A stretch of DNA of 64,000 nt. It comes from Candidatus Competibacter sp. Lineage in GTDB: Bacteria > Pseudomonadota > Gammaproteobacteria > Competibacterales > Competibacteraceae. Shown piece after piece: positions 14,525 through 51,716 of this stretch (its first letter is position 1; each line of letters opens with the position of its first letter). A program made the translations under genes and the position numbers. The notes under the pieces are model-generated. The model saw only the letters and a program-made list of their open reading frames with translations, had not been told where the DNA came from and did not search any database. Location of the stretch: contig JAVMKJ010000110.1 in NCBI GenBank assembly GCA_031732855.1, positions 21,006 to 85,005 of the forward strand, written 5' to 3'.

Positions 14525-14532
14525 GTCCCGTT

Positions 14533-15721: not shown

Positions 15722-15730
15722 AGGTTCACC

Positions 15731-25979: not shown

Positions 25980-26017
25980 TGCCTGTCTCCAAAATACCTT
26001 GAGAGATTTTATAAAAA

Positions 26018-26686: not shown

Positions 26687-26690
26687 TCCC

Positions 26691-35956: not shown

Positions 35957-36224
35957 GGCGAGTCCACCGAGAGTCGAGGAAAAGGTGGTGAATTATGCCT
36001 GAAATAGATATTGAGTTTTTGGCAGGTTGAACAGCCCTTTTAATGTTAAGTCAACTTATTAAATTATAATAACTTAATTGGTTGAATAAACCTGCATGAG
36101 GCGTTCGTCCAAGACACCCGGGGTGTATGGCGGTTGGCGAGTAGCCAGACTCATCCGTCACCTGATAATTGGCCAACTCCTTGTGGAAAAGCTGTCGGCA
36201 AGTTTTCCCGTCCAAAACCAGTGG

Positions 36225-38642
36225 CTAAGGCAGCCAAGACCACATCTCCACAGTCACAAAGCGCACCAGCCGATGGGTGAAGGCCACCGCCAGCGGTTCC
36301 TCCTCCGCGGCAATTTTGGCATAGCCCGTCATCCCCGGTTTCAGTAGACCCTCCGGGTTGGGTACCTCCAGGATGACCTTGACTACCCGGCCGGTAGGGG
36401 TATCGCTGGTAGCGGTGTCAATCTGGGTGACCTTGCCGGTAAAGTAGCGCTGGGAATAGGCCCATGGCTTGAGCCGGGCGCCAGCGCCCAGCGCCACGAA
36501 GGGTAAATCCGCTTCCGGCACGCTGATCTCGGTCCGCAACACTCGATCATCCTGCACGGTGGTGAACAAATCGCTCTCTTCAAGATACTTGCCGGTCAGA
36601 TTCCGCAACTTCAGGTCGGTCAGCCGTCCATCGATCGGCATGATCAACCGGGTGCGGGCCAACTGTTCCTGATCCAGCACCAGTTGTGCCTTGAGACGCT
36701 CCAGTTCGGCCCGCGCCGCATCGATATCCTGGGGATAGGGACCGGCCCTGACCAGATCGAGATTGGCCTGCTGTTTCTGCACCTGCTGGCGATCCACCTC
36801 CAGCTTGCTTTCCGTCGCCTCAAACTGTTGCTCCGACGTGAAGCCGCGCCGCAACAACTCCCGTTGCCGGGTCAATTCGCTGCGCTGAAACTTCTCCTCG
36901 GCCACGGCGACCTGGAGTTCGCGATCGGCGATGGTCACTTCCTCCGGACGTGGAGTGTTGAGCAGTTTATCCAGGTTGGCCTGTTGGCGGTCGATGGCCG
37001 CCCGGGTAATCGCAACCTGCTGCTCCTGACGATAGGATGACTGGCGAGCGATCGGGACACCGGCCTGCAGCCAGTCCCCCCCTTCATAGAACACTTGCTC
37101 CACGATGCCCGAAGTCTGGGCGTACAATTCCCGACTCTGAATCGGCATCAACTCAAAGGAACCACCGGTTTCGTAGGGATAAGGCAAGGCCCCGACCAAG
37201 ATCGCGAGAACCAGCAGAAGCGGTGCCGTCCACCGCCGGGTTTGAGCCGGGAGCGCGGCTACTGGTTCGCTCGCCAGCGCAGGGGTGACTGGTCGTCCGG
37301 CCTTGCTCCTCGCCGCCGCCGGCCGCGACCGATAACGGGCCTGACGCTCGGCGGTCCGCTTGCGAAATGCTCGCAGGAGGCTCCACCCCGCCCAAGTCAG
37401 CAAAATGAGGAACAGAGCGATACCGGTACCGCTGAAATGAAGACGCAGCCAATCGCCAATCAGATAAAGCGTCAACCCAAACAGCGCCAGAAAGTAGACG
37501 CAGACCGCCAGGGCATAGGCTACAAAAGCGGAGCGTCGACCACGCTCATCTTCCCTTACGGAACCTCGGCGGAACAGGGCGCGAATGGCCTGGAGACGTA
37601 GATTGGGAGTATCCAGATAAGCCGTCAGCCATCGGTAACCATCGCCCGCGCCCAAGGGATTGCTGCTAATCACGAACATGATCGTCGTCATCAGCATCAG
37701 GCTCAGCCAGAAGAACGGCAGCCGGGTACCGGTATCGCGACTCAGCAACCAGCCCAGCACACTAAGGCCGAACAACGCGATTTTGACCAAGGTGGGGGTT
37801 GCCAGCACCCAAAGCACCTGGTTTCGCGACAATCGATCGAGACCGTCCAGTTCGACATGAAAGCGTGGCAGGACACCAAACAACAAGAAAACGCCAACGC
37901 CCTCGACCCGTCCCCCCAATGCGATATTGACTACACCCTCCAGCCAATGGCTCAGGAAATTGACTATCATCAAATTGATCAGCAGATGCAGAAGGATATG
38001 CTGAAGAGGAGTGACAGGTCCCCAAAAATAACTCAGATCGGTTTTCAGATGCGCGGCGTTGTACATCAGCGCCACCAGTGCCAGTCCAAAACCGAGCGGT
38101 AACAGATAGATCAAGGATGCCAGCGGACGAATCAACCGCGCCAGGAAATCCATGAGCGCGGTCGCTTTCACCAAACGCCGGTAATAAGAGGGAGTACGCT
38201 TGCCGGGCTCCCGCCCGCCAGGCTTGAGCGCATCGAGCAAGGCCAGCCAGGCATCGTCGGCTTCGGCGCCAGGAAAATGCCGGTTCGCTTCAGGTGATCG
38301 GGACGGTTCGGACGGTTCGGACGGTTCCGGCGCTTCATCCATACTTGCCGCCGTTGCCGGTGAGGTTTTCGGAGTATCCGCCAGCAACCCCCAACCTGAA
38401 AGACTGGTCAGGAACTTGTCGAGATAGGCAGGTGTGAGGCGTTGCTGGTAATGTTGTTGAAAGGCCTGCAGCAGGACCTCTGGCGCGGCGCGACCATCGA
38501 GTCGGGTAATGAGGAAATATTCCTTCTCGCCGAACTCGAAGGTTTCGTTCCAGACCGGATCGCGGATGACGTAGACCGTCCCCTGCTCGCGGTTGTCGCA
38601 GGTGATGACCAGATCATCCCGCAGCTTGGGAATGCTTGACAC
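36225..38642 (-). CDS. Fusion protein: PqqD-like N-terminal domain + polytopic M50(site-2-protease)-like membrane domain lacking HExxH + C-terminal HlyD-type membrane-fusion domain
   Basis: 805 aa with a GTG start 3 nt after the upstream stop. The N-terminus is SIPKLRDDLVITCDNREQGTVYVIRDPVWNETFEFGEKEYFLITRLDGR. A Pro/Ser/Glu linker is followed by ~7 hydrophobic helices carrying HILLH and NPLGAGDGY. The C-terminal ~330 aa show lipoyl-like hairpin, long coiled coil and beta-barrel features typical of HlyD adaptors. Confidence 0.6.
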   Translation of the reverse strand: MSSIPKLRDDLVITCDNREQGTVYVIRDPVWNETFEFGEKEYFLITRLDGRAAPEVLLQAFQQHYQQRLTPAYLDKFLTSLSGWGLLADTPKTSPATAASMDEAPEPSEPSEPSRSPEANRHFPGAEADDAWLALLDALKPGGREPGKRTPSYYRRLVKATALMDFLARLIRPLASLIYLLPLGFGLALVALMYNAAHLKTDLSYFWGPVTPLQHILLHLLINLMIVNFLSHWLEGVVNIALGGRVEGVGVFLLFGVLPRFHVELDGLDRLSRNQVLWVLATPTLVKIALFGLSVLGWLLSRDTGTRLPFFWLSLMLMTTIMFVISSNPLGAGDGYRWLTAYLDTPNLRLQAIRALFRRGSVREDERGRRSAFVAYALAVCVYFLALFGLTLYLIGDWLRLHFSGTGIALFLILLTWAGWSLLRAFRKRTAERQARYRSRPAAARSKAGRPVTPALASEPVAALPAQTRRWTAPLLLVLAILVGALPYPYETGGSFELMPIQSRELYAQTSGIVEQVFYEGGDWLQAGVPIARQSSYRQEQQVAITRAAIDRQQANLDKLLNTPRPEEVTIADRELQVAVAEEKFQRSELTRQRELLRRGFTSEQQFEATESKLEVDRQQVQKQQANLDLVRAGPYPQDIDAARAELERLKAQLVLDQEQLARTRLIMPIDGRLTDLKLRNLTGKYLEESDLFTTVQDDRVLRTEISVPEADLPFVALGAGARLKPWAYSQRYFTGKVTQIDTATSDTPTGRVVKVILEVPNPEGLLKPGMTGYAKIAAEEEPLAVAFTHRLVRFVTVEMWSWLP

Positions 38643-38645
38643 GGC

Positions 38646-40139
38646 TTAACGGCGACCCAGCCAGATTTCCAGGCCACCCTGGGGATTATCCTCGTAACGC
38701 CACTGGTCCCCGCGGCGGACGGCCACCCGGGGGCCGAAGGGATTGGCGGTACCGAGAAAAAAACCATGCGGCGTGGAGACCAGAGTGCGAAGCCCATAGT
38801 TGTAGGGATTTCCGAAGCCCTGGCGGTTGACCGGCAACCAATTTTCACCGTCGCTGCTGCGCCACAACTCGAATCCGCCCTGCCGCGCGACGATGTTTTC
38901 CACCCCGATCAATTCGTAGAGACGGCTAACCCTCGGGGACCGTCGTTCCAAATCGGCATACCGCAGCGTGTTGCTCCAGTCCATGGTGCCGGCGTAGAGC
39001 CAACCATCGTGGACACCCATCCGCCACAGATAGGCATTGAAGAAATTGCCAAAACCGGCGCCGAGCCCGCTCAAGGGACGCTTGAAACCCTGGACCGTAT
39101 CCCGGGCGTTACCGACGATGAGATCCCAGGAACCGTCGCCCCGAACCCGGAGTATTTCCGCGCTGGCCGGGCCGATCTTGTGGGTGTAATCGTAGCCGCC
39201 ATTTTGAATGCCGGTGCCGAGATAGAGCGCACCCCGAAAAACCTGCATGCTGGCGACCAGCTGATTCAGTGACCCGCGCCCGGCACCGCCTTCGAGCACC
39301 TTTTCCCAGCGGTACGGCGGTCGATCCTCGGCAGCGGTACGCCACAACTGAAAACCCTGGTTATTGAGGGTTCCGGCATAGAGACGGTCCTCAAATACCG
39401 CCATCTCGAAGATGGTCAGATTACCAGGATCGCCGAAGCCCGGTTCGTTGACCAGGATCCAGTCCCCCCGGACGGGATCGCGGGTGGCGTAGATTTCAGG
39501 CACCCGAGAAGTATTGGGATTGCCTTGGGCAGCGCCGGTAGGCGCGATAAACAATTGCCCCTTGAAAGGCACCAAGGCTCGCAGACTGGTGACTGGCTGA
39601 CCGCCGATCCTGCCCAACCGGCCGACCACCTCGAAAGTCGCACCATCGCGGCAGCGCAGCAGTAGCGGGCCATCGCCGTTGGCCCGCGACCAGTTACTGG
39701 TATACAAAGCAGGTTCGGGGTCGCTGGCGCTCTGGTAAATCACCATCCCCCGATAACCCAGATCGCGGCTCATCGTGCCGCCGTGATTGCCCACCACCAG
39801 CGGCGCCCGATAGACCCGCGTCCAGGCAGCTTGCACGGGATGGTACTTCCAAATTTCGGCGCGGGCCTGCAGGGTTTCGAACTCCTCGGACAGCAACTTG
39901 TGGGGACACTCCACCGGCCAGACACCGATATCGATGCCAAGCCGTTCCTTGATCAGGCAGAAATTGGCCCGGGTCGTGCCGACATACAGGGCATCCCGGT
40001 ACCAAGCCATGCAATGAGCATAGGCGTTGTTGCCATCACCGAAACCGTTGGCGCAAATCTTGTAAAAATCCTGAAAACGCAGGCCAGGCTCGGGGGAAGG
40101 ATAAAAACGGTTACCTGCAAGTCCGATGGTGGCGATCAT
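38646..40139 (-). CDS. Beta-propeller repeat protein, paralogue 1 (497 aa, cytoplasmic by sequence)
   Basis: Repeated blades of the form GFG(D/N)..N .. LY(V/A/L)GT .. GF(Q/E)LWR. Examples are NGFGDGNN..LYVGT, GFGDPGN..LYAGTLNNQGFQLWRT, GFGNFFN..LYAGT and GGFELWRSSDGENW..GFGNPYN..FFLGT. No signal peptide. The ATG overlaps the upstream stop (ATGA). Confidence 0.6.
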   Translation of the reverse strand: MIATIGLAGNRFYPSPEPGLRFQDFYKICANGFGDGNNAYAHCMAWYRDALYVGTTRANFCLIKERLGIDIGVWPVECPHKLLSEEFETLQARAEIWKYHPVQAAWTRVYRAPLVVGNHGGTMSRDLGYRGMVIYQSASDPEPALYTSNWSRANGDGPLLLRCRDGATFEVVGRLGRIGGQPVTSLRALVPFKGQLFIAPTGAAQGNPNTSRVPEIYATRDPVRGDWILVNEPGFGDPGNLTIFEMAVFEDRLYAGTLNNQGFQLWRTAAEDRPPYRWEKVLEGGAGRGSLNQLVASMQVFRGALYLGTGIQNGGYDYTHKIGPASAEILRVRGDGSWDLIVGNARDTVQGFKRPLSGLGAGFGNFFNAYLWRMGVHDGWLYAGTMDWSNTLRYADLERRSPRVSRLYELIGVENIVARQGGFELWRSSDGENWLPVNRQGFGNPYNYGLRTLVSTPHGFFLGTANPFGPRVAVRRGDQWRYEDNPQGGLEIWLGRR

Positions 40140-40588
40140 CGAGGCGGGAACAAAGGATTAGGTAGGTCGCAATCAATCGGCTTGGGTAGTCCCAAGGATT
40201 TTCCGGCTTCCTCAAAAAGGGCGAGTTCCTCGCGGGTCACGGCCAACACCGCTTCCAGCCAGGTGACCCGGTACCGTAGCTCGCGACAGCGCTGGTCGAT
40301 CTCTTCCAGGGTGCTGGACCCCGGATCAAAGACCTTGTTGAAATCGAACTCGGGCGGCTGCATGTCGAGCAACTGACTCAATTGCTCGGCCGTAACCCTC
40401 GGAACGGAGGCGGGCGCCGGCGGGGATAACGTCTCCAATAAGCCATCCGCCATGGTGGATTCCGGTTCTTCCGCCCGGACAGGACCCGCGCCGGCTTCAT
40501 CGCCGGCCGGAGCGGTGGTGAAACCAAAACGTCCCCGGGCGCGCAGACGCTCCAAGGCCGACAGTCGTTTCTCTACGGCGGGGTCCAT
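40136..40588 (-). CDS. Low-complexity acidic protein with C-terminal amphipathic/coiled-coil helix (150 aa)
   Basis: MDPAVEKRLSALERLRARGRFGF.., then a Pro/Ala/Glu-rich middle, then ..EEIDQRCRELRYRVTWLEAVLAVTREELALFEEAGK. It is intercalated between sulfotransferase-like 1 and propeller 1. No known motif. Confidence 0.45.
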   Translation of the reverse strand: MDPAVEKRLSALERLRARGRFGFTTAPAGDEAGAGPVRAEEPESTMADGLLETLSPPAPASVPRVTAEQLSQLLDMQPPEFDFNKVFDPGSSTLEEIDQRCRELRYRVTWLEAVLAVTREELALFEEAGKSLGLPKPIDCDLPNPLFPPR

Positions 40589-40631
40589 TTACAGTTCCAT
40601 GAATAAAGACATAAGGCGGCATTCAATTGGA

Positions 40632-41549
40632 TCAAACATAGCCGAGCCGTTCGGCCAGTTGCAGGGTTTGCGGATTGAACCCCCGACCGTCGGACCGCCA
40701 AGGCAATAATCCAACCAAGCTGCTGGCGGTGATACGGCCGGGGCGGAAGCGGGGATCCTTGAGAAAGTTGATATCGTTGCCAAGATGCGCTCCGAAAGGC
40801 CCGAGGGAGGCATAGGGCGACGCCTCCGGATGCAGCATGGCTTCCATCGCCTCCGGGCTATCGGCCACCCCCAACCAGGTGGCGCACATTCGCAGATGCG
40901 ACTCTGGATCGTTCAGCAAGTCCTCGCCCCGGATCGTCCGCTGCCGCTCCCAGGGAATATCGGCCAGAAACGCCAGAATATGGCTCTGCGTCCGGCACCA
41001 AGTGACCTGAGGGTCCAGAGTGGGGGGCAAGGTGCTGTAGTCATAAGCGTTTTCCATCGCGGCCAGCAACGGATTCAGACGCAACAACGATTCCCCCTGG
41101 GTACGCGGGTGCCGGACTAAATGGATGTAGCAGGCTTCGGGAAACGTTTCGGCGATACGCCGCAGATAGCGCGGGCTGGCGCAATAGACCGGGCTCTTGT
41201 CCACGATGCGTAAGGGAGACACCCGGATGGCTAACTCCCGATAAACTTCACCGGTGGTACGGGAAAGCCGGCGCAGGATCCAACGACGCGCCAGGTCGAT
41301 GCTGGCCAGGGTTTGCTCTCCGGCATAGATCTGGGCGATCGCCCGCAGCAATCCGTGCATCATGAACTGGCGCTGGCCGGTCAGGCGCAGCCACAACCGC
41401 CGCATATCAGGTTCGATGAACAGATTGAGTTCCGGTACTCCGTAGTGGGCCGGATGCTGGCCCAGCATGGCGCAGATCACCGAGGTGAAGGAACGCGGCG
41501 AGCCGAGAATGAACAGCGGCGCCGATGCAGTGGTTTTTGACGCATTCAC
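40632..41549 (-). CDS. Sulfotransferase-like protein, paralogue 1
   Basis: 5'-PSB-like loop ILGSPRSFTS and 3'-PB-like IHLVRHPRTQGES. It is paralogous to 42809-43693 and 46123-47007. The start was set at the GTG at 41549, which overlaps the upstream stop (GTGA). The listed TTG at 41564 is the alternative. Confidence 0.6.
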   Translation of the reverse strand: MNASKTTASAPLFILGSPRSFTSVICAMLGQHPAHYGVPELNLFIEPDMRRLWLRLTGQRQFMMHGLLRAIAQIYAGEQTLASIDLARRWILRRLSRTTGEVYRELAIRVSPLRIVDKSPVYCASPRYLRRIAETFPEACYIHLVRHPRTQGESLLRLNPLLAAMENAYDYSTLPPTLDPQVTWCRTQSHILAFLADIPWERQRTIRGEDLLNDPESHLRMCATWLGVADSPEAMEAMLHPEASPYASLGPFGAHLGNDINFLKDPRFRPGRITASSLVGLLPWRSDGRGFNPQTLQLAERLGYV

Positions 41550-42808
41550 AGAGACAACCGCCAAACCGTCAGTCCGGGCGGCAGGGAATCAGTGCCAGGT
41601 CCCGCGGCGGTGGAAATCGCCGCGCCAGGTTCCGCAATATCGGGGTCCGCCGCGCTAAAACGCGCCGTGGTACCGGTGCAAGCCAGGAGGTGATCGCCCA
41701 GATGGATCAACCCCAGCAGCGGCTGGGCAGCTTCGACAAGCAGCCCCGGCCATTCCCGGGGCTCAAACTGTTCCCCGTCGCTACTGGCCCACAACTGCTG
41801 GCGAATCGGTTCCCCGGCTTCGGGCAAGGTGCCGGCCGCAATATACAGGGTACCGCGATGGCTGAAAAGACCCAGAAGGTTAGCGCGAGCGGGATCGCCG
41901 AGACCGGACCCAAGCGAGGCCAGCGGCACCTTGAGACCCTGTGGGGTGAAACGCACTGCACCCGCCAGGATTTCCCAACGATCATCCTGGTCCACCCGTA
42001 ACAAATCCACTCCCAATGGCCTGGCGTTGGCGGCGGTCTGCCCGGTCCGACCGGCGGCCAGACAGAGTTTATCGTTCCAAACCGTCAGCGCGAGGATCTC
42101 GCGGTTGCCGGTATGGCGCTCGGCGCCATCGCGCAGCACGCAATGCCAATCCTCTGCCATGCCCTCCGGGGTCAGCCCGGCCCACCAGAGTTGAAAGCCT
42201 CGCTCATCGTTGGCCACCGCCGCGTAAAGCCGCCCCTGCCATGCGATCAGGTGGGTGATCATGACATGGGCGGAATCGCCAAATGGGGACTCAACCATCG
42301 GTCGCCATCTTTCCCAAGCGGGACCTTCATTCCACAGCAGGGCAGGCGCCCTGCCGCTCGCCGCGTCACCGGCCACCGCCACGAAGAGTCGACCCTGGCA
42401 ACCCAGCAATGCGGTCACCGGGCCGTAGCCGCCGGGGAATTCGGCCACCGGCAGAAAGCACTCTCCGGTATCGCTCCAGGCCAGCGCCACACCATGGTCA
42501 TGAAAGGCATTGGTGAACAGCCGAGGACGATTTCCAGCCGCAATGGCGAAGGTCAAACCCGGGAGGAAGGGTGACCTCGCCGGTTCGGCAAGAATCGAGG
42601 CGACTTCACCTCTCACGGTTGGATATACCGCCCGCCAGTACGGTTGATCGATCCCGCGCCGGACTACCTTAACACCGGCGGGCATCCGGGTGGCGAGATG
42701 GAACGCGCCGTCAAACTCCATTCCGGCGAGAGCAGTCACCGCGGTCGACCCCGCGCCACGGGTTAAACATTCGATGGCATGAAACCAGTCGGATGGAACG
42801 CCGGACAT
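41546..42808 (-). CDS. Beta-propeller repeat protein, paralogue 2 (420 aa)
   Basis: Same blade pattern as paralogue 1 (RLFVAVAGD, RLYAAVANDERGFQLWWA, KLCLAAGRTG, TLYIAAGT, QLWASSDGEQFEP). Its ATG directly follows the stop of sulfotransferase-like 2 (TGAATG). Confidence 0.55.
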   Translation of the reverse strand: MSGVPSDWFHAIECLTRGAGSTAVTALAGMEFDGAFHLATRMPAGVKVVRRGIDQPYWRAVYPTVRGEVASILAEPARSPFLPGLTFAIAAGNRPRLFTNAFHDHGVALAWSDTGECFLPVAEFPGGYGPVTALLGCQGRLFVAVAGDAASGRAPALLWNEGPAWERWRPMVESPFGDSAHVMITHLIAWQGRLYAAVANDERGFQLWWAGLTPEGMAEDWHCVLRDGAERHTGNREILALTVWNDKLCLAAGRTGQTAANARPLGVDLLRVDQDDRWEILAGAVRFTPQGLKVPLASLGSGLGDPARANLLGLFSHRGTLYIAAGTLPEAGEPIRQQLWASSDGEQFEPREWPGLLVEAAQPLLGLIHLGDHLLACTGTTARFSAADPDIAEPGAAISTAAGPGTDSLPPGLTVWRLSL

Positions 42809-43693
42809 TCAACCGTACCCCATCTGTCTGGCCAACTCGCCGACCGCCTGCGTCAGTTCGGGATCCGGAATCTGGGCTAGCAGCGGATCCTCACGCAGGG
42901 GCGGCAAGGTCAATTCGGGGCGCCGCAGAGTCGGCGACAGCAAAAACTTGCGATCATCGCCCCAGCGGGCATTGACCGGTCCCGGCCTAGCAAAGGGTGA
43001 ATGCTCGGGGTGGCGCATCGCCTCAATCGCATCGGCATCGTCCCGAATCCCCAGCCACTGGGCGATCTGCGGCAAATAGCATTCATCTTGGGTCAGCAGC
43101 AATTCCCCCCGCACGCTCGCGCACTGACCCTCCGGCAACACCGAAGCGAAATCCAGAATGGCGCTGTGGTGGTGATACCAAAGCTTCAACTTCTGCTGCA
43201 ACCATTTGCCTTGCTCGGGTGGTGGCTCCTCGCGCTGGTCCAGGAGGGCATGGGCCACCGCCAGCGGGTGAGTAGTTACATGCAGGAAATTCGCTTGGGG
43301 CACCGCCTTGTAGGCCCGGATCAGAAAGCCCCATTGGACCGAACTGGTGGTGCTCTTGTCTACCAGAATCCGGGGCGCCACCGCAGCGGCCAGATGAGCG
43401 ATTATCCGAGCGATGCTCCAGTCGCGCCGGTCCGCCAGCCAGCTCCAGGCCCGGCGGGCGCTAGCCTCGCTCTGCTCGCCTTCGTGCAATTGCGCCAAGG
43501 CACGCACCAGACCGTGGGTAGCTTGGGGCTGGTCCTGGCGGTGGGTGTGATAATCGTGCCACTGCGTCACGGTATCGGCGACAAACAGGTTAAGCTCCGG
43601 CAAACCGTAAAGTTGCGGGTGCTGGCCCAGCATGGCGCCGACCAGTGAAGACAGCCAGTGCGAGGCGCCGAGAACAATGATCGCGTTAGCCAT
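42809..43693 (-). CDS. Sulfotransferase-like protein, paralogue 2 (PAPS-binding motifs degenerate)
   Basis: 294 aa from the ATG at 43693. The listed ORF extends to 44083 but would then overlap the esterase gene. It shares MLGQHP..PELNLF..HGLVRALAQLHEGEQ..DKS..EAMRHPEHSP with the paralogues. However, it has GASHWLSS and VTTHPLAVAHA where the others have PRSF(T/S)S and RHPR..G.S. Confidence 0.55.
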   Translation of the reverse strand: MANAIIVLGASHWLSSLVGAMLGQHPQLYGLPELNLFVADTVTQWHDYHTHRQDQPQATHGLVRALAQLHEGEQSEASARRAWSWLADRRDWSIARIIAHLAAAVAPRILVDKSTTSSVQWGFLIRAYKAVPQANFLHVTTHPLAVAHALLDQREEPPPEQGKWLQQKLKLWYHHHSAILDFASVLPEGQCASVRGELLLTQDECYLPQIAQWLGIRDDADAIEAMRHPEHSPFARPGPVNARWGDDRKFLLSPTLRRPELTLPPLREDPLLAQIPDPELTQAVGELARQMGYG

Positions 43694-44720
43694 CGGGGAC
43701 AAGATTCCGGCGCGATTCAGGGTTGGCGTCCGGCGAACCAGGCATGCGTGAAGCACCGAGCGTATCGAAGAAACGCCACATCTCGCGGCTAGCGGAAATC
43801 GAGTGGCTGGAGTACTCATTCCGCCCCCAGCGATCACTACGTTGGCCACCTGGCCAAGTGTGCCCGCCGCCATCGATGGTGACCAGCACGACGGGACCAC
43901 CCCTGCGGCAACTGAACTGCTCGATGTTGGCATCGCCAATCCTGGTATCCCTACCCTGCCCCTGACATTGGTGGTATTGCCGCAGCCAGTCGATGGTATC
44001 CGGTACCGAACGATGGGGCACCCCAACGATTGAACGGACACCGATTCCACCCTCGAAGGGTGCGTTCTGATCCGCAAGGCCATGAAAGTGGATCACTGGA
44101 ATCGGACGCGCGGGGTTGCATCGTTCGGTCATGAGGGTACCGGCTACCGGTGCGATGGCGCTAATTCGGTCGGACAGATCGCACGCCAGCCGGTAGGCCA
44201 TCATGGCGCCGTTGGAGATCCCCGTGGCGTAAATCCGATTGGCATCGATCCGGAACTGATTCGATACCTGATCGATGATTGCTTTGGTGAAGCCGACATC
44301 GTCCACGTCATTACGCTGGGCGATGCCGCAACAGAGACCGGCGTTCCAGGTAAAGCGGTTGCCTTCGGGATTGCGTCCGGTACCGTTGGGATAGACCACG
44401 ATAAAACTCTTCTCTTCGGCCAGTTCGTTCATGCCGGTCAGCAACGGCATTCTCTCGGCATTGCCCAGACCACCGTGAAATACCAGGATCAGCGGCACGG
44501 CGCGGTCAGGATTATAGTTGCGAGGCACGTAGATCAAATAACTGCGCGGCAACCTTTCATAGGGCAAGCTCACTTGTTGGAGCACGCCTTTCTGAATGCT
44601 TCCCAGAGTCGCCGGTCGGGCCGGGCCAGGCGCGACGGTATTGTCGTCACCGGCGTAGCATCCCGTCATCAGGCCGAAACCGACCAGCCCACAAAGCAGC
44701 CATTCAAACATCTGGCGCAT
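43686..44720 (-). CDS. Secreted lipoprotein esterase of the PHB-depolymerase / LpqC (COG3509-like) family
   Basis: Signal peptide with lipobox-like LMTGC. The body shows YLIYVPRNYNPDRAVPLILVFHGG..FIVVYPNG..WNAGLCCG..DDVGF..IYATGISNGAMMAYRLAC, with the nucleophile elbow G-x-S-x-G. Confidence 0.7.
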   Translation of the reverse strand: MRQMFEWLLCGLVGFGLMTGCYAGDDNTVAPGPARPATLGSIQKGVLQQVSLPYERLPRSYLIYVPRNYNPDRAVPLILVFHGGLGNAERMPLLTGMNELAEEKSFIVVYPNGTGRNPEGNRFTWNAGLCCGIAQRNDVDDVGFTKAIIDQVSNQFRIDANRIYATGISNGAMMAYRLACDLSDRISAIAPVAGTLMTERCNPARPIPVIHFHGLADQNAPFEGGIGVRSIVGVPHRSVPDTIDWLRQYHQCQGQGRDTRIGDANIEQFSCRRGGPVVLVTIDGGGHTWPGGQRSDRWGRNEYSSHSISASREMWRFFDTLGASRMPGSPDANPESRRNLVPDG

Positions 44721-44764
44721 GCTTTAAAGAATCCTCGTGGAAGTCTCTCCAGCGAACATGGCTG

Positions 44765-46126
44765 CTATCTCCCGAGCCACACCGCGCATCCGCCAGCACC
44801 GGCGGCCATGCTCGCGCCTTGTCGTCGATAGCGCCTGGCGATTTCCTGGTGGTTCGAACTGCCTACAAACAACCCCGCCGGCGTGGAGAGTAAGGTTTGG
44901 ACACCGATTTGGAAAGGGTCGCCAAACCCGGTGGCAGCCACCGCCTGCCACTGATCGCCGTCCTCGCTGGCCCACAATTGAAAACCACCCTGAAGCGGCT
45001 GGCCCGTCAGGGCGCACTCGAAAGATGCCCAGTGATGGGTGCCAACGTACAGACAACCATCATGGGCCACCATGCTCCACAGTACGGAATTATAGAAATC
45101 GTCGAAGCCCGGTCCCCGGACCGCAAAGGGCACTTTCAAACCGGTTGAAGAAAAGCGGGGTTCGCCCACCACCAATTCCCAGCGGTCATCGGCGTAAACG
45201 CGCAACAGTTCGGCGGCGGCGGGACCGATGTCATTGGCTGAATCGTAACCCAGTCCCGGCAGTCCCGTCGTCACATACAAAGCGCCATGGAAAACCGTCA
45301 GGGCCGGCACCAAGGCGTTGAGATTGTAGCGCCCGGCGCCGTCCCGGAGCACCAGATGCCAACGATAGGGCGGCTTGCCCCGGGTGCTGGTCTTCCAGAG
45401 TTGGAAGCCGCGTTCAGGATTGCCGGTTGCTGCGTATAAATGGTTGGCGAAACTTGCCAAGGCGGTAATGGCGCGGTTGGATGGATCACCAAACCCCGGT
45501 TCCATGGCCGGTTGCCAAACGCCGTTCACCGGATCGTCAGTCACATAAACCATGGGATCGCCACTGAAATTATGATCGAACTGTTGCTCATTCACCGCGC
45601 CGGTCGGAACGATGAACAGTTTGCGACCATGGCCAAGCAGGGTGCGGAAGGATAGCAATCGTCCGCGATCCAAATCTATTAGTGGCACCGCCTCAAAGCA
45701 CTCACCGTCTAGGGAACGCAGTAAATCCGCGCCCCAATGACAGATTGTGCCGACATAAAGCGCGGGCGTGGGATCGGAACGGCCTTGGAACACCGTCATC
45801 GCGCGAAAGCCGCGATAGCGCGGCACGGCGCTGGTGCTGTGCTGGGCGGGGGCACGACGCCGCAGCACGTCACGGGCGAAGGCGCGGCTGTCGGGCTCGG
45901 TCAGCGGCGAGACAAAAACCGTATTCCAAACCGCTCGAAGCGGGTCGTAGCGCAGAATACGAGCCCGATCCTCGGGACTGGCGCCACGAGGATGAGTCAC
46001 CCCAACGTACAAGGCGTCCTGGAAATAGGCCATGGACTGCGCCACCCGGCTGCGTGGATTGCCCAGACCTCCCCTGCCAATTAACTGGAATCGCTGGGCG
46101 TTCAACATCGCGGCTTCATCCGTCAT
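44765..46126 (-). CDS. Beta-propeller repeat protein, paralogue 3 (453 aa)
   Basis: Blades: LYVGVTHP, LYVGTICH, LFIVPTGA, GFGDPSN..LYAATGNPERGFQLWKTS, LYVTTGLPG, CLYVGTHH, GGFQLWASEDGDQWQ..GFGDPFQ..LFVGSSNH. The ATG overlaps the stop of sulfotransferase-like 3 (ATGA). Confidence 0.6.
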   Translation of the reverse strand: MTDEAAMLNAQRFQLIGRGGLGNPRSRVAQSMAYFQDALYVGVTHPRGASPEDRARILRYDPLRAVWNTVFVSPLTEPDSRAFARDVLRRRAPAQHSTSAVPRYRGFRAMTVFQGRSDPTPALYVGTICHWGADLLRSLDGECFEAVPLIDLDRGRLLSFRTLLGHGRKLFIVPTGAVNEQQFDHNFSGDPMVYVTDDPVNGVWQPAMEPGFGDPSNRAITALASFANHLYAATGNPERGFQLWKTSTRGKPPYRWHLVLRDGAGRYNLNALVPALTVFHGALYVTTGLPGLGYDSANDIGPAAAELLRVYADDRWELVVGEPRFSSTGLKVPFAVRGPGFDDFYNSVLWSMVAHDGCLYVGTHHWASFECALTGQPLQGGFQLWASEDGDQWQAVAATGFGDPFQIGVQTLLSTPAGLFVGSSNHQEIARRYRRQGASMAAGAGGCAVWLGR

Positions 46127-47007
46127 TGGTAACCGAACTCCCGGGCCAGCTTCAGGGTCGGACGGGAAAAATAACTACCGGGACGCCAATCCAGTTCTTC
46201 CTCCAAACGGGGTTGCTCCTGGGCGCGGGACGGACGCAGGCGCGGATCCTTGAGAAAATTGGGATCGTTACCCATCTGAGCATTGGCCGGCCCCAGACAG
46301 GCATAGGGCGAGGTCTCCGGATGCTTCATCGCCTCGATCGCCGCTTGATCGGTCCGCACCCCCAGCCATTCCGCGATCTGCGGCAGATAAATATCAAGCG
46401 CCGATAACAGATCCTCACCCTTGATCCGCATGCACTGACCGAAAGGCAGAGTGCGGGTGAATGCCACGATGTTATGGTGGGCGACATACCAAAGCCGCTC
46501 GGGGTCGACCCGGTCGGGATCGGCTGGACCGTTCCATTCGTGATTGTGCCGCACCAGTTCCAGAATGGATTTGCCGGTCGCGCGGGGATGACGGGACAGA
46601 TGCAGATAACTGGCACTGGGGCAAATGCCGTGCATGGTCCGCAGGACACGCGGACTCATCACCGTCGCCGGACTTTTGTCGATTAGAATCCGGGGCGCGA
46701 CTCGATCGGCCAGGTAGGTGAACACCCGCCCCGTGGCCCATTCCAGACGCGCGTCGAGCCAGTGCTGTGCGCGGCGCACTGTAGCCTCGGTCTGCTCGCC
46801 GTCGTGCAACTGCGCCAAGGCGCGCAACAAGCCATGCACCGCAAAGGGGCGAGTACGCTGGTGCCGCTGCAGCAGGGCGCCCAGGTTATCTTCCAGGAAC
46901 AGATTCAGCTCCGGCATTCCGTACATATCCGGGTGTTGGCCCAACATGCCGCAAACCACCGAGGAAAAGGAACGAAGTGGACAGAGAATAATGAGAGGAT
47001 CAGGCAT
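46123..47007 (-). CDS. Sulfotransferase-like protein, paralogue 3
   Basis: 294 aa. 5'-PSB-like CPLRSFSS and 3'-PB-like LHLSRHPRATGKS. It shares conserved blocks with the two paralogues. Confidence 0.6.
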   Translation of the reverse strand: MPDPLIILCPLRSFSSVVCGMLGQHPDMYGMPELNLFLEDNLGALLQRHQRTRPFAVHGLLRALAQLHDGEQTEATVRRAQHWLDARLEWATGRVFTYLADRVAPRILIDKSPATVMSPRVLRTMHGICPSASYLHLSRHPRATGKSILELVRHNHEWNGPADPDRVDPERLWYVAHHNIVAFTRTLPFGQCMRIKGEDLLSALDIYLPQIAEWLGVRTDQAAIEAMKHPETSPYACLGPANAQMGNDPNFLKDPRLRPSRAQEQPRLEEELDWRPGSYFSRPTLKLAREFGYQ

Positions 47008-47899
47008 CGTGCATTCCGCATGGCGGCTGCGCCAGATTGGTCAGGAAATCTCGCCAGACCCGAATCAACAGTTCCGGCTGGGACACGGGAAAAAAATGGC
47101 CGGCCTTGGGCACCAGTTCGACTCGGGTCTGCGGCCACAGGGCCCGCAGACCATACGCGCTGGGCAACGCCTGGGAATACTCGCCGTACATCGCCAGGGT
47201 CGGCAGGCGCAGGGTCTGCAGTGCGACCAGCGACAGACCGTCCTCGGCCAGTTCCCGCCGGGCGGTGGTCACTTCCAGCAGGCGTAACCAGTGACGCGCC
47301 GCCCGCTGGCCGACCGGCCCGGTGAACGGCAAATGCAGGTCGGGCAACCGCTGCACCCGCTCGGGAGCACCCAGAGAAAGCTTGGCCATCTCTTCCAGCA
47401 AACGGTGGCTGAACAGGGGATCGCTCTCATCCAGTTGGATACCGAGTCTTTCCAAAAACGGCTGGATTCGCCGTGTATAGGCTGGGTTGCGAGGCAGGAG
47501 CCCCTGCAGCGTGGGAATTCGAGTATCCAACAGGGTCAAACTGCGCACCCACTGGGGCTGGCGCAGGGCAAAATGCAACGCCACCAAGCCGCCGAAACTA
47601 TGCCCGATCAGATGCAGGGTGGTGACACCCGTCTGATGCAGGAGATGCCACAAATCTTCGGCCATGATCCGGGGTGAGTATCCGTTGACGCTCATGGTGC
47701 TGCGCCCGTGGCCGCGCAAGTCGAACAGCAGAGTACGATGGCTTGCAGCGAAGGCTGGTGCCAGACGGGCGTACCAGAACGCCAGATTGGCAGCCAGACC
47801 GTGCACCATCACCACATCATCTCCGGGCGCGCCCGGGTCCGGACGTCGATCCATCCGCAGATAATGGAGGTTGATCCCTGGCAAACGAACGACCGGCAC
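47000..47899 (-). CDS. Alpha/beta-fold hydrolase
   Basis: GTG start. VVMVHGLAANLAFWY (oxyanion HG), nucleophile elbow LIGHSFGG, and the C-terminal His region GHFFP. Confidence 0.7.
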   Translation of the reverse strand: MPVVRLPGINLHYLRMDRRPDPGAPGDDVVMVHGLAANLAFWYARLAPAFAASHRTLLFDLRGHGRSTMSVNGYSPRIMAEDLWHLLHQTGVTTLHLIGHSFGGLVALHFALRQPQWVRSLTLLDTRIPTLQGLLPRNPAYTRRIQPFLERLGIQLDESDPLFSHRLLEEMAKLSLGAPERVQRLPDLHLPFTGPVGQRAARHWLRLLEVTTARRELAEDGLSLVALQTLRLPTLAMYGEYSQALPSAYGLRALWPQTRVELVPKAGHFFPVSQPELLIRVWRDFLTNLAQPPCGMHDA

Positions 47900-47901
47900 G
47901 A

Positions 47902-49503
47902 CTATTCCATATAGCCCAACATATGCAACTGCTCGAGAATCCTGGCTTTTTCAGCCGCGCTGGCTTCAGTGGTCTTGCTGGTCCCACCCGCGACCGGCAG
48001 GGTTGGATCACCCAAGCGAACCGGATGGGAAATCCGTTGTTCGGCGGTGAAGAAAGCCTCTGGTACCCTCCCTTCCAAGTCTCCGGGAATATCCAGGCCC
48101 AAGCTGTATAGCAGGGTGGCCGCCACGTCCACGATGTCGCGGGGCTCGCCATGCTGGCCGGCGACGATACCCGGACCGGCAGCCAGGAAAATGCCCTCGG
48201 GATGATGGGTACCGACTGGATAGGGACGCGGCAACACCACTGGTTCCAGATTTTTTATCGAGACAAAACCGTGATCGCGCAAGGTCAACAACAGATCGGG
48301 AGCCTGACTCATGGATGGCCCAGGAAACACGTCCTCGCGGGTGCGGATGGCGCGGATGATGCGCTCGCCGCTTGCAGGATCGCGCAAGGCTTCCAGATCG
48401 ACCATCAGTTTGGCGCGGAAGGCCGGGTACTCGGCGGCGGCGATGCCGGCTTCACCAGGATGGCGGGCGACGCGGATCGTAATGCCGTTGCTGGAAGGCG
48501 TATGGCAATAGGCCACGGTATTCTTCCAGTCGAGATGGGTGAAAAAGGCGCTGGCCTCGCGCCGGGCAAATTCCGCGCTGCCGTCGGCCAGCTTCCAGAA
48601 CAAATAGCCTTTTTCATGCAGATAGCGGTTGATCCGCACCACCTCGTTACTGTGGGTGAAACCATGATCGGAGGCCACGAACACTTGCGCCGCGGGACCG
48701 GCCAGCGCCACCAGTCGCTCCAGATACTGGTCCAACTGGCGGAAATAGCGCAGACATAGCGCCCGCATCCGCCGTTCCCAGGGCGAGGGGTCGCTGTTAA
48801 GCAAGGCCGGCTCCAGGAAGCGCCAAGCCTGATGCTGGATCTTGTCGGTGCCATCGAACATCACTGCCATCAAGTCCGGCCGTTCGCTGGCCAGCAGGTG
48901 GCTGGCCACCCGAAACCACTGCTCCTCGCGGGGCAGATGATATCCGACCCAGGCTTCGCACTCCGCTTCGGAAAGATCGTCCAGCGACTGATTTTCCCGC
49001 TCGAAATCCCAGGCCAGCTCCTTGGGGTTGAAGCCATCCAGGGCACGCAAACGTTCGTAAAGCGACTCGGGATAGCTGTTGCGGCGCAGGTGCTTCCAGG
49101 GAACGAAACCGGGCAACAGAAACCCGTTGACCGGCCGGGGCGGCGCGGTAATCGGGAAGTTGAGCGCCGCCACGCGCCGCTGTTGGCGGCTGGCAATGGC
49201 CCAGATCGTCTCCACCCGGATATCACGGGCATCGTAGAGAGTCGTAAAACCCTCGCCATTCTGTTCGGCCACCCGCAGAAAGTCGAAAACTCCATGCTGG
49301 CCCGGCCAGCGCCCGGTCATCAGCGAGACCCAAGCGGGCGGAGTGAGGGGGTTGGGCGTGGAGCGCAGCACCGCCCGTGTCCCGCTCGCCATGAAAGACC
49401 TGAGAAACGGCATTACGATCTCGCCGTCGGGGTCGGGTTGGATCATTGCATCCAGCAGGGTGAAGGTGGCACCATCCAGACCGATGAACAGGGTCCGGGT
49501 CAT
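47902..49503 (-). CDS. Alkaline-phosphatase-superfamily enzyme (type I phosphodiesterase / nucleotide pyrophosphatase, COG3379-like)
   Basis: MTRTLFIGLDGATF (metal-binding DG), NPLTPPAWVSLMTG (nucleophile Thr context) and ASDHGF. 533 aa. The ATG overlaps the carrier-protein stop (ATGA at 49500-49503). Confidence 0.65.
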   Translation of the reverse strand: MTRTLFIGLDGATFTLLDAMIQPDPDGEIVMPFLRSFMASGTRAVLRSTPNPLTPPAWVSLMTGRWPGQHGVFDFLRVAEQNGEGFTTLYDARDIRVETIWAIASRQQRRVAALNFPITAPPRPVNGFLLPGFVPWKHLRRNSYPESLYERLRALDGFNPKELAWDFERENQSLDDLSEAECEAWVGYHLPREEQWFRVASHLLASERPDLMAVMFDGTDKIQHQAWRFLEPALLNSDPSPWERRMRALCLRYFRQLDQYLERLVALAGPAAQVFVASDHGFTHSNEVVRINRYLHEKGYLFWKLADGSAEFARREASAFFTHLDWKNTVAYCHTPSSNGITIRVARHPGEAGIAAAEYPAFRAKLMVDLEALRDPASGERIIRAIRTREDVFPGPSMSQAPDLLLTLRDHGFVSIKNLEPVVLPRPYPVGTHHPEGIFLAAGPGIVAGQHGEPRDIVDVAATLLYSLGLDIPGDLEGRVPEAFFTAEQRISHPVRLGDPTLPVAGGTSKTTEASAAEKARILEQLHMLGYME

Positions 49504-49787
49504 ACGCCGTCACCTCGCTGCAATTTTCGCTCGACAAAGACGACCAGTTCGCCGATGGTGAGATCGCTGACATACTGATCGCCTTGCATCAGCAATCCCT
49601 CGAAACCCAGGCGGCCCCGCCCAAAGTGCTCCTCGATCGACACGAGGAGATGGACGATATCGATGGAACTGAAACCCAGATCAGTGACCAACCGGGTTTC
49701 CAGGGTAATCGCCTCATCCAATGTGATCTCCCAGTCCCGAATCGAATCTTCAATCAGCGTAATGATGCTGAATGCAACTCTAAGCAT
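49500..49787 (-). CDS. Phosphopantetheine-type carrier protein (ACP/PCP-like, 95 aa)
   Basis: From the ATG at 49787: MLRVAFSIITLIEDSIRDWEI..LVTDLGFSSIDIVHLLVSIEEHFG. This has the four-helix carrier-protein layout, with the Ser in a (D/G)(F/L)(D/S)S(I/L)D context. The listed ORF could extend to the ATG at 49943, adding a Cys/Arg-rich 52-aa extension that I consider less likely. Confidence 0.55.
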   Translation of the reverse strand: MLRVAFSIITLIEDSIRDWEITLDEAITLETRLVTDLGFSSIDIVHLLVSIEEHFGRGRLGFEGLLMQGDQYVSDLTIGELVVFVERKLQRGDGV

Positions 49788-50188
49788 GGTTATTTCCGAC
49801 AACTTGAGGTCTGGACAGGATTTTCTTCTCGCGGGAAAGGCAAGAACCGATGGCGGGGCTCCTTCCAATCGCACTGGATGGCAGTGCACCGTCAGCCTCT
49901 GGCACCTCTCCGTTCCAGCACAGCACGCAAGGTCTCGACGCATTCAAATCTGGACGGTCGAACAGCCGGAAATCTCGCCTCCGTCGCAGATCGCCCAAGA
50001 AAACCTAGCATGGCAGTGCCATTTTGCGAGGTTGCCATGAAAGTACCGGACTTTCATCGTTGGGGGTGTCGATTCCATCGACATGATTGTTAGGCACTCG
50101 CTGGAACTCCGAATCGGTCCTTCACTGTCAATCAGGACTGGCTAGTAACGGGCACGCACGGAGAAACGCTCTTTACACCTATTTCAGC

Positions 50189-50794
50189 CTAGCGCTTTTG
50201 CAGCTTGCCTATTAGTTCCAGTTCCTTGAGTCCCTTGTCCAGGGTTTCTTCCAGCCAGTCGATACGCTTTTCCAACTGGGCACGATAACGACTCAGCATT
50301 TCCGGCGAGAACGTGCTGAAGGGCGTGGAAGATTCACTCGTCATGGCGATGTCGTCGTCGAGAAGGGGGGGCGCGGCCTCGGGCACGGTTTGAGATATCG
50401 GCGGAGAAGGACGGGCCGGCGTTTCCGTTCCTCTATCCAAGGCTGCCCGGAAACGACCGCCGCGTCCCATGCCACCCCCGAAGCCACCCGCCACTCTACC
50501 CTGTTGCCGGCGCTGCGCCAGCATTTCCCTCAACCGGGGGAAGCGTTCCAATACTGCCTGGGGGTCACCGCCACCTTCTCCCATCGGCGGATTCCGGAAC
50601 AGGCCCCGTCCTCCGCCCAACCCACGCCCGTCCAAAGCATTCTCCTCCAGGACCTGCGCCGGCTCCGCAGATTCCAGATCTGGCTTTCTCAGGATCTCTG
50701 GCGATTCCGGCAATGGCGCCTGATCGAGCCGTTGATGCTTTTCCTTTAACGCCTGCAATCGCGCGCGCCGCGCCTGAGCATCGTCTTGAGCCAT
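50189..50794 (-). CDS. Low-complexity Arg/Gly-rich protein with C-terminal coiled-coil helix (201 aa)
   Basis: The ATG at 50794 has a GAGG Shine-Dalgarno 6 nt upstream. The listed GTG at 50845 is the alternative. Sequence: MAQDDAQARRARLQALKEK.., RGG/GGF-rich centre (GRVAGGFGGGMGRGGRFRAAL), and a C-terminal SRYRAQLEKRIDWLEETLDKGLKELELIGKLQKR. Confidence 0.45.
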   Translation of the reverse strand: MAQDDAQARRARLQALKEKHQRLDQAPLPESPEILRKPDLESAEPAQVLEENALDGRGLGGGRGLFRNPPMGEGGGDPQAVLERFPRLREMLAQRRQQGRVAGGFGGGMGRGGRFRAALDRGTETPARPSPPISQTVPEAAPPLLDDDIAMTSESSTPFSTFSPEMLSRYRAQLEKRIDWLEETLDKGLKELELIGKLQKR

Positions 50795-50878
50795 GCTTGC
50801 CTCACTCGGTGAAAAGTGTGAAAAATCGTCGGGTAAACAATACACCCCAGTTATGTTTGACGCGAAGCCACGCGGAAA

Positions 50879-51697: not shown

Positions 51698-51716
51698 GCG
51701 GGGCTGGGAGTTAAAT

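Follow-up and report, generated by a model that had tools for sequence, protein, structure and literature searches.

Paired sulfotransferase and beta-propeller genes in Candidatus Competibacter most likely form tailoring modules of a widespread PfaA-like lipid cluster

What does a beta-propeller protein do beside a sulfotransferase (ST), and why should the two be found together three times in a row? The question is raised by a 64,000-nucleotide stretch of Candidatus Competibacter sp. (assembly GCA_031732855.1, contig JAVMKJ010000110.1, positions 21,006 to 85,005; hereafter the window), in which three ST genes, ST1, ST2 and ST3, each have a gene for a predicted propeller, Prop1, Prop2 and Prop3, downstream on the same strand. 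A preliminary description of the locus had read them as a duplicated two-gene module whose partners co-evolve, with the propeller acting either as a dedicated substrate or as a specificity or scaffold subunit, and knew of no described ST that works with a propeller partner. Our literature search likewise returned no description of the propeller family, of the ST-propeller pairing or of the type of gene cluster in which it occurs. We propose that the three pairs are most likely tailoring modules in a widespread cluster built around a PfaA-like (polyunsaturated-fatty-acid-synthase-type) polyketide synthase (PKS).

The pairs lie within 12 tightly packed minus-strand genes that form one operon at 36.2-49.8 kb of the window, in the order acyl carrier protein (ACP), phosphodiesterase, hydrolase, ST1, Prop1, lipoprotein esterase, ST2, Prop2, ST3, helical open reading frame (ORF), Prop3 and M50-like/HlyD protein (Table 1). 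The three ST-like ORFs, two of them of 294 aa, are on the minus strand exactly where they had been placed. From the ACP gene to the exporter gene, the intergenic gaps are −4, 2, −8, −4, 44, −8, 0, −4, 43, −4 and 3 nt. The ST1 stop thus overlaps the Prop1 start by 4 nt (ATGA), no nucleotide separates ST2 from Prop2, and in the third pair a 150-aa ORF is intercalated between ST3 and Prop3, with a 4-nt overlap with the Prop3 start. These junctions had been taken as a special feature of the pairs; since the same close packing prevails throughout the operon, they are no mark of the ST-propeller pairs in particular. A crude hydropathy check found no N-terminal hydrophobic segment in the three STs and three propellers, in agreement with the absence of signal peptides noted before, in contrast to the lipoprotein esterase of the same operon, which has one.

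The ST-like proteins do belong to the sulfotransferase family and not to another one, as all three exceed the curated gathering cut-off of 27 bits for Pfam Sulfotransfer_3 (PF13469; scores in Table 1). The other two STs share 43% and 47% identity with ST1, and every sequence block quoted in the preliminary description (MLGQHP, PELNLF, HGL.RA.AQ, GEQ, DKS, EAM.HPE.SP and a C-terminal GY) is invariant in their alignment. Among solved structures, a profile of the three STs best matches the STs of CurM (1.8e-28) and of the olefin synthase OLS (1.4e-27; PDB 4gbm, 4gox), with ~250 residues aligned, whereas tyrosylprotein sulfotransferases reach only ~1e-4. D110, K111 and S112 of the DKSP motif, in the 3'-phosphate-binding region, are invariant in the three STs and align with VDKSP of the CurM ST. 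The Glu of PELNLF aligns with PELHLL of the CurM/OLS relatives, in which we take it to be the catalytic residue; His62 of the CurM ST, to which we presume a role in that enzyme, corresponds to an Asn in the STs described here. In the phosphosulfate-binding (PSB) loop, PLRSFSS in ST1 and SPRSFTS in ST3, the Arg is kept and a Phe occupies the usual Gly position; the family-wide consensus is P[LMP]RS[FY]SS, compared with PRSGST in the CurM type. The loop of ST2 is degenerate (ASHWLSS, with SHWLSS replacing PRSFSS) and has no Arg, and its orthologues P0122, P0125 and P0126 have the same altered loop, which reads SHWLSS or SPWLSS in close orthologues. The family also has a C-terminal extension of ~45 residues past the CurM-aligned stretch (window 46123-46230, 42809-42920 and 40632-40740), a tail that is not present in the CurM ST and that in 113 of 120 ST homologues closes with LA[KR]xxGY and one further residue. 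This tail may be a docking motif; its terminal helix is ordered (pLDDT ~86-88) in the joined ST1 and Prop1 model discussed below. In CurM and OLS, the ST first attaches a sulfate to the beta-hydroxyl of the acyl chain on the ACP, and a thioesterase then drives decarboxylative elimination (PMC3903477). Most likely, ST1, ST2 and ST3 are O-sulfotransferases that depend on 3'-phosphoadenosine-5'-phosphosulfate (PAPS) and belong with CurM and OLS to a branch whose substrates are hydroxyacyl chains bound to a carrier.

The downstream partners are paralogous as well, Prop2 and Prop3 sharing 32% and 44% identity with Prop1. We found in them the repeat motifs GFGD..N, LY.GT and GFQLW and a terminal Asp-box (SEDGDQW, SSDGEQF or SSDGENW), with one or two Asp-box-like motifs per propeller. 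The AlphaFold2 model of Prop3, computed from a 32-sequence alignment, is almost all-beta with ~7 long beta-hairpins (pLDDT 92, pTM 0.92), so that both the motifs and the predicted fold bear out the description of each ST partner as a 420-497-aa repeat propeller ending in an Asp-box. Foldseek searches of the PDB with Prop3 returned beta-propellers exclusively, including GH74, sortilin, sialidases, lactonase-like proteins, a Diels-Alderase and glycosidases, with a query-normalised TM-score of at most 0.48 among the 50 matches listed; as these are generic propellers, no function can be transferred from them. Neither the three propellers nor the two helical ORFs have a Pfam match, even at E = 10, or an NCBIfam match. 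The propellers share the beta-propeller fold with the BNR/Asp-box type, but without its repeated Asp-box or a BNR-type profile match. Homologues of Prop3 number more than 2600, all named 'hypothetical', with 52-65% identity among the matches listed (cyanobacteria and proteobacteria), and the family comprises 2164 representative clusters at 50% identity (E ≤ 0.001). Type 3 is the core and most conserved type, and Prop2 is the most diverged of the three propellers. Besides the structural Asp-box, the positions that do not vary hold for the most part Gly, Trp, Pro, Arg or Asn, and among them all we found no obvious catalytic constellation.

Relatives of the locus were found by a genome scan for propellers and by tblastn mapping of all window proteins onto the resulting loci (designated by L numbers). 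Co-divergence was evaluated on 24 ST/propeller pairs from 17 loci, mostly adjacent, with some type-3 pairs merely located in the same cluster. The neighbour-joining trees of STs and propellers display the same four clades, namely type 1, type 2, type 3 and a clade of L009 with L014a, with L005, L019a and L019b as exceptions to the agreement. The two distance matrices correlate with r = 0.63, a value reached by 0 of 5000 label permutations. We also drew an independent metagenome sample from the ST side, which after deduplication comprised 75 loci with 120 ST genes. Of its 32 loci in which an ST is flanked by 1.5 kb or more on either side, 26 contain a propeller gene, and the directly adjacent metagenomic pairs are type-concordant in 23 of 26 cases (18 ST1-Prop1, 4 ST3-Prop3 and 1 ST2-Prop2), the other 3 being discordant. 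A type-1 ST followed directly by a type-1 propeller was observed in L002, L003, L004, L008, L021 (twice) and 18 metagenomic loci, and type-1 propellers are always preceded by a type-1 ST. The order ST2-Prop2-ST3-helical ORF also occurs in L018, and in L054 with a type-1 ST at the first position. More generally, the ST-to-propeller adjacency is kept from alpha- and gammaproteobacteria to cyanobacteria and other phyla, and recurs among others in Paracoccaceae, Bosea and other alphaproteobacteria, Nevskia and Anabaena PCC 7108. Compared with the orthologues in L001, ST2 is 79% identical, Prop2 61%, and Prop1 and Prop3 83-84%, ST2 and Prop2 thus being the fastest-evolving of their kind. Overall, the shared clades and the type-concordant pairs indicate that the triplication is ancient and that each ST type keeps its own propeller type. 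The duplicated module of the preliminary description is therefore an old one, and its co-evolving partners can be retained as co-divergence at the level of types; co-inheritance suffices to produce it, and the pairing is not one-to-one.

The setting in which the pairs occur is equally conserved. In L001, a proteobacterial metagenome-assembled genome and the closest relative, the operon is identical (~61-89% protein identity), and the gene order of the window is found in L001 and L026 (~80-87% protein identity). Directly upstream of the ACP gene in L001 are PfaA-like PKS genes that end exactly at the ACP start; the best NCBIfam model for this PKS is PfaA, at 554 bits, below its cut-off. A PKS adjoins the same core in L016, L017, L019, L020, L021, L022, L023, L024 and L106, which makes ten loci with L001. 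The recurring cluster comprises two PfaA-like PKS genes, NMO-KS-AT-KR-DH and KS-AT-DH-PPTase, a ~100-aa ACP, then a phosphodiesterase, an alpha/beta hydrolase and a propeller, a tailoring set that varies (sulfotransferases, methyltransferases, short-chain dehydrogenases/reductases (SDRs)), a PHB-depolymerase-like esterase and an M50-like/HlyD protein of 700-900 aa, after which some clusters encode a TolC-like OEP. Its core consists of the synthase with phosphopantetheinyl transferase, ACP, phosphodiesterase, hydrolase, type-3 propeller, lipoprotein esterase and M50-like/HlyD adaptor. Within this conserved lipid cluster the ST-propeller pairs are accessory, having been inserted after the hydrolase gene and before that of the type-3 propeller, and are not the free-standing module that they had seemed to be. 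PAPS-supply genes lie next to homologous clusters, an APS kinase gene in L014 and CysNC, CysD and CysQ in L021. In L014 (Anabaena PCC 7108) the ST carries a fused ACP-like domain, and the hydrolase and type-3 propeller come next; in L056 tblastn places an ACP, a divergent ST, the hydrolase and the type-3 propeller in that order.

The role of the propeller is best approached from its other partners. The type-3 propeller directly follows the hydrolase in L014, L016, L020 and L022, and does so as a fusion protein in L024 and L106; in L016 (Anthocerotibacter) there is no sulfotransferase within 10 kb. We took the top 150 representatives of the propeller family, scanned the 55 of them that are 640-970 aa long with Pfam, and found a C-terminal S-adenosylmethionine (SAM) methyltransferase in at least 23 of them, a PlsC-type acyltransferase in 2 and an NAD-dependent SDR in 1. 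A few family members carry PKD or TSP3 repeats, which suggests that some of these bind extracellular targets. Two propeller-methyltransferase fusions are encoded in the same cluster type, in L023 and L106, that of L106 directly after the hydrolase, the position held by a propeller-SDR fusion in L024; in L020 an unfused propeller gene is followed by an overlapping methyltransferase gene, and a propeller-acyltransferase fusion lies outside any cluster. The enzymes fused to or paired with the propeller all modify hydroxyl or carbonyl groups of lipids. Since the same propeller is fused to other tailoring enzymes in related clusters, it is probably a helper for such enzymes, and its fusion or pairing with four enzyme classes, together with the lack of evident catalytic residues and its occurrence without an ST, makes a companion domain the best reading. 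On the same grounds, fusion to other enzyme classes and occurrence without an ST, a propeller that serves as the dedicated substrate of the sulfotransferase is unlikely.

We therefore consider the following scheme. Each sulfotransferase would place a sulfate on a hydroxyl of a lipid chain and would work with its cognate, non-catalytic propeller, which would bind or present the substrate or its carrier and thereby fix the position of the enzyme on the chain. This would yield a long-chain lipid with several O-sulfates, which the HlyD-type exporter would take over and the periplasmic esterase would trim. We hold this scheme as a whole, from tailoring pairs to exported lipid, with moderate confidence. 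Its sulfotransferases and PfaA-like clusters are of known kinds; the new element is the propeller companion and its cognate diversification. A broader proposal, which we put forward tentatively, is that the propellers are a new and widespread family of substrate-presenting (regiospecificity) subunits, of which cognate types, tied by fusion or pairing to a sulfotransferase, methyltransferase, reductase or acyltransferase, would decorate the hydroxyls of an exported lipid derived from a PfaA-type synthase across cyanobacteria, proteobacteria and other phyla.

Several observations weigh against this scheme. The pairing is neither obligate nor one-to-one, and ST-ST-propeller arrays are common: directly downstream of the 93 ST genes of the metagenome sample that are evaluable, with at least 600 nt downstream, we found a propeller 25 times, another ST 18 times and neither of the two 47 times. 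As linked genes are co-inherited, co-divergence alone cannot prove an interaction. A specificity or scaffold subunit, as proposed in the preliminary description, is favoured by the fusions and the pairing; a confident docking of the two proteins is the part that was not obtained. The AlphaFold2 model of ST1 joined to Prop1, whose alignment was anchored on nine joined ST-propeller sequences of the window, six of them non-cognate, has both domains folded (pLDDT 85) and a pTM of 0.64, about that of two undocked domains, so that the model neither supports nor refutes a contact. We looked for a natural ST-propeller fusion and found none in the top 120 homologues of the STs or the top 120 of the propellers. 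In the metagenomic protein P0307 (737 aa), the single candidate among the 55 long proteins scanned and one that we rejected, the ST match ends at residue 198, where an Arg-rich stretch begins, and ~190 residues matching neither protein separate the ST part from the resumed propeller; it is probably a frameshifted ST read into an overlapping propeller frame. ST2, without the basic residue of the PSB loop, may have altered or lost PAPS binding and be inactive. The hydrolase does not appear specifically similar to the CurM thioesterase, and no member of the cluster family has a known product. Finally, no source of the substrate was found in the window: the 64 kb contain neither a PKS nor a PKS remnant. 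Nucleotide synteny with L001 is limited to 36223-49825, with a break at ~49825, and beyond it a Gly/Arg-rich protein of 218 aa, a sulfatase-like ORF and a tetratricopeptide repeat (TPR) protein occupy the place that the PKS has in L001, before the nuo operon. Synteny restricted to the operon, without a PKS remnant, indicates that in this genome the tailoring and export operon is separated from the synthase.

Because the shared history of linked genes yields congruent trees, one has to ask whether the propeller might have a function of its own in the lipid pathway, unrelated to the STs, such as handling of the chain after its release or a link to the exporter, with the adjacency resulting from co-duplication or co-transfer. 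The type-3 propeller belongs to the core and comes right after the hydrolase whether or not STs are present, no docking signal appeared in the joined model, and the members with PKD or TSP3 repeats are probably extracellular binding proteins. We nevertheless regard such an independent function as rather unlikely, given that type-specific pairing is kept across distant lineages, that independent fusions to three classes of tailoring enzymes argue for a functional tie to tailoring, and that rates covary within pairs, ST2 and Prop2 both being the fastest of their kind. Alternatively, the propeller could be an enzyme that uses sulfate as a leaving group: the ST would activate a hydroxyl, the propeller would eliminate, cyclise or substitute, and the three pairs would stand for three transformations, so that the final product need not carry sulfate. 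The two closest solved relatives, CurM and OLS, are precisely the known activating sulfotransferases, the ACP-ST-hydrolase order of L014 and L056 mirrors the ACP-ST-thioesterase of CurM, many propellers are enzymes (lactonase-like proteins, a Diels-Alderase and glycosidases among the Foldseek matches), and consecutive steps would fit the tight gene pairing. Such logic fails, however, where the same family is fused to a methyltransferase, an SDR or an acyltransferase, and it meets further difficulty in the type-3 propeller of L016, which has no ST nearby, in the invariant residues, in which no catalytic constellation is obvious, and in the lack of a close structural relative (TM-score below 0.5 among the matches listed); we judge it quite unlikely.

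The least likely of the rivals, and in our opinion a very improbable one, is that the STs sulfate peptides or proteins, modifying the propellers or the 150- and 218-aa proteins, which the M50-like/HlyD protein would process and secrete by analogy with RaxST-RaxX-RaxABC. The weak similarity of the STs to tyrosylprotein sulfotransferases would fit, as would the presence of small conserved ORFs, the matches of the 805-aa protein to HlyD adaptors and to HExxH proteases of peptides made on the ribosome and modified after translation (RiPPs) of the daptide (1e-12) and epipeptide (3e-4) types, and two weak Peptidase_C39-like proteins encoded in L019. Against this, the HExxH motif is gone in the window and in most homologues, and the window has no ABC or C39 transporter. 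The PfaA-like PKS stands beside the operon in ten loci, and the small ACP and the phosphodiesterase are present in most. The 150-aa ORF, fused to a propeller in P0029 and P0034, is an appendage and not a precursor. As for the propellers, their sequences stay 52-65% identical from one phylum to another, they form fusions with small-molecule enzymes, and they can be encoded where there is no ST. We thus return to the scheme of lipid-tailoring pairs with a substrate-presenting propeller for the discussion of the remaining genes of the operon.

Table 1. Genes of the operon, in order of transcription, and the adjoining 218-aa ORF (window coordinates).
Feature	Position	Strand	Evidence or remark
Small acyl carrier protein (ACP), ~95 aa from internal Met	49500-49787	−	ORF as listed reaches 49943
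Alkaline-phosphatase-superfamily phosphodiesterase, 533 aa	47902-49503	−	Pfam Phosphodiest 8e-40
Serine alpha/beta hydrolase, 299 aa	47000-47899	−	Pfam Abhydrolase_1 2e-29; nucleophile elbow GHSFG
ST1 sulfotransferase, type 1, 294 aa	46123-47007	−	PF13469 69.7 bits
Prop1 beta-propeller, type 1, 453 aa	44765-46126	−	Paralogue alignment
Lipoprotein esterase, PHA-depolymerase type-1 catalytic domain, 344 aa	43686-44720	−	Pfam Esterase_PHB
ST2 sulfotransferase, type 2, 294 aa	42809-43693	−	PF13469 47.6 bits
Prop2 beta-propeller, type 2, 420 aa	41546-42808	−	Paralogue alignment
ST3 sulfotransferase, type 3, 305 aa, GTG start overlapping Prop2 stop	40632-41549	−	PF13469 89.4 bits
Helical protein going with Prop3, 150 aa	40136-40588	−	Homology to N-terminal extensions of P0029, P0034
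Prop3 beta-propeller, type 3, 497 aa	38646-40139	−	Paralogue alignment; AlphaFold2 model
M50-like + HlyD-type membrane protein, 805 aa, presumed exporter component	36225-38642	−	Pfam HlyD_D23, HlyD_3
Gly/Arg-rich protein, 218 aa, system membership uncertain	50189-50845	−	C-terminal helical motif seen by eye

At the upstream end of the operon, the ACP has a Pfam PP-binding match, NCBIfam acyl carrier protein matches below cut-off and GFSSID at the phosphopantetheine-serine position, and is 87% identical to its 94-aa L001 orthologue. The small ACP followed by the 533-aa cytosolic phosphodiesterase is an invariant couple in the cluster family, and the order ACP-phosphodiesterase-hydrolase is found in L001, L016, L019, L020, L023, L024 and L106. 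A sequence search for the phosphodiesterase gave no relative in the PDB; it could cleave or transfer at the phosphopantetheine phosphodiester. The hydrolase has a weak Pfam Thioesterase match besides Abhydrolase_1, and we also considered it as a CurM-type thioesterase. This candidate was rejected, the best PDB matches being Cif-like hydrolases, esterases and dehalogenases, with the CurM thioesterase outside the top 60.

The esterase scores 180.6 bits against NCBIfam NF050058 (cut-off 150), a model for the type-1 catalytic domain found in extracellular short-chain PHA depolymerases. An LMTGC lipobox follows its N-terminal hydrophobic segment, and it recurs in L002, L003, L008, L019-L022 and L106. 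Of all the proteins of the operon it alone is exported, a hint that ester bonds of the product are processed in the periplasm. The 805-aa protein has an NCBIfam RND_mfp match besides the protease matches given above. Its HExxH motif is replaced by SHWLE in the window and is also gone in L001, L005, L017 and L019, compared with HELAH or HEFSH in the distant homologues of L020 and L022. Its M50-like domain is thus probably a pseudo-protease that serves as a membrane anchor or part of a channel. In L023 and L106, a TolC-like OEP gene follows the M50-like/HlyD gene.

The 150-aa ORF, with the motif EEIDQRCRELRYRVTWLEAVL..REEL, is conserved in L001, L018, L033 and L054 and is homologous (pairwise E = 5e-8) to the N-terminal extension of P0029 and P0034, two natural fusions in which the helical motif occurs twice before a type-3 propeller. 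This homology indicates that the ORF is a propeller appendage and not a spacer or a precursor. The C-terminus of the 218-aa ORF carries the helical motif RYR..L...I.WLEE.L......EL.L, as in the 150-aa ORF, P0029 and P0034. Together these proteins look like a family of short docking-type helices tied to type-3 propellers. No family match was obtained for the 218-aa protein, which lies outside the L001-syntenic block.

Beyond it, the sulfatase-like ORF (50879-51859, minus strand) matches the STM4013-family hydrolases below the cut-off and overlaps, as listed, the TPR gene (51717-52955, minus strand) by 143 nt, so that its real start is probably further downstream. TPR proteins are also encoded near the homologous clusters L014, L017, L020, L022, L033 and L042; note that repeat proteins match easily. 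Elsewhere in the window, type IV pilus genes at 20634-27443 (minus strand) encode a 1781-aa PilY1 with a PA14 domain, PilX and PilW, in a stretch with a G+C content of 0.52-0.57, compared with 0.60-0.69 for most of the remaining window. Very long ORFs (867, 1220 and 1490 aa) without a Pfam match are found at 168-6433 (plus strand) and 12899-17371 (minus strand), with 66-69% G+C; given this base composition, some of them may be spurious. A gene for a cyclic-nucleotide-gated ion channel lies at 11062-12366.

How does the system compare with those already described? The ACP-ST-thioesterase termination modules of CurM (curacin A) and of the cyanobacterial olefin synthase, which lead to a terminal alkene, share the PEL and VDKSP motifs with the STs described here, and in both systems an ACP and an alpha/beta hydrolase are associated with the ST. 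The STs of the window differ from them in being stand-alone ~295-aa proteins in three paralogous copies, with PRSFSS instead of PRSGST in the PSB loop and a C-terminal extension of their own. A phosphodiesterase here separates the ACP from the hydrolase, no PKS module in the window embeds an ST, and the propeller next to each ST has no counterpart in CurM and OLS. That several enzymes can share one propeller has a precedent in Tyw4/LCMT2 and its relatives, in which a kelch-like propeller domain is fused to Tyw4, Tyw3 and Tyw2, enzymes of a single pathway (PMC2938197). The likeness lies in one propeller joined to several modifying enzymes, as in this cluster family; the kelch propeller has no detectable sequence relation to the present one, and that system is eukaryotic, acts on tRNA and includes no sulfotransferase.

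The cluster itself is reminiscent of PfaA-type secondary lipid clusters with envelope export, such as the heterocyst glycolipid synthase with DevBCA-TolC. Common to those clusters and to the relatives found here are PfaA-like synthases of KS-AT-KR-DH make-up accompanied by a phosphopantetheinyl transferase, an HlyD adaptor, a TolC-like channel and presence in cyanobacteria. In contrast, the window has no glycosyltransferase or ABC component, and its adaptor is fused to an M50-like domain. To our knowledge, neither the ACP-phosphodiesterase-hydrolase-propeller core nor tailoring by sulfotransferases is part of the Hgl or Pfa systems. RaxST-RaxX-RaxABC, which combines a sulfated peptide with type I secretion, resembles the operon in that a Sulfotransfer-family enzyme is encoded beside an HlyD-type adaptor. 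It differs from it in the precursor peptide and the C39-ABC transporter, which are lacking here, and in the PKS/ACP context, the lost HExxH motif and the weak similarity to tyrosylprotein sulfotransferases of the present system. The mycobacterial sulfolipid-1 pathway (Pks2, Stf0, MmpL8), in which Stf0, of another ST family, sulfates trehalose, likewise combines a polyketide-derived lipid, a sulfotransferase and a dedicated exporter, and the L001 PKS has a sub-threshold NCBIfam match to Pks2. The acyl chain is not sulfated in that pathway, which has no propeller or phosphodiesterase and uses another exporter.

If the propellers act as adaptors, they would constitute a new protein family, without a Pfam or NCBIfam model, and a new organising principle, in which a separate propeller subunit sets the position on the chain of a sulfate, a methyl or acyl group, or a redox change. 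If instead they act on sulfate-activated chains, the pairs would represent a new sulfate-leaving-group chemistry beyond CurM. The cluster family is uncharacterised and phylogenetically broad, and is probably annotated only as PfaA-like or heterocyst-glycolipid-like PKS clusters. The L001-type cluster, with the synthase and all three pairs in one stretch, offers a concrete target for natural-product chemists, and the products of the family, likely exported lipids that carry sulfate or methyl groups, could be of importance for the biology of the cyanobacterial and proteobacterial cell envelope.

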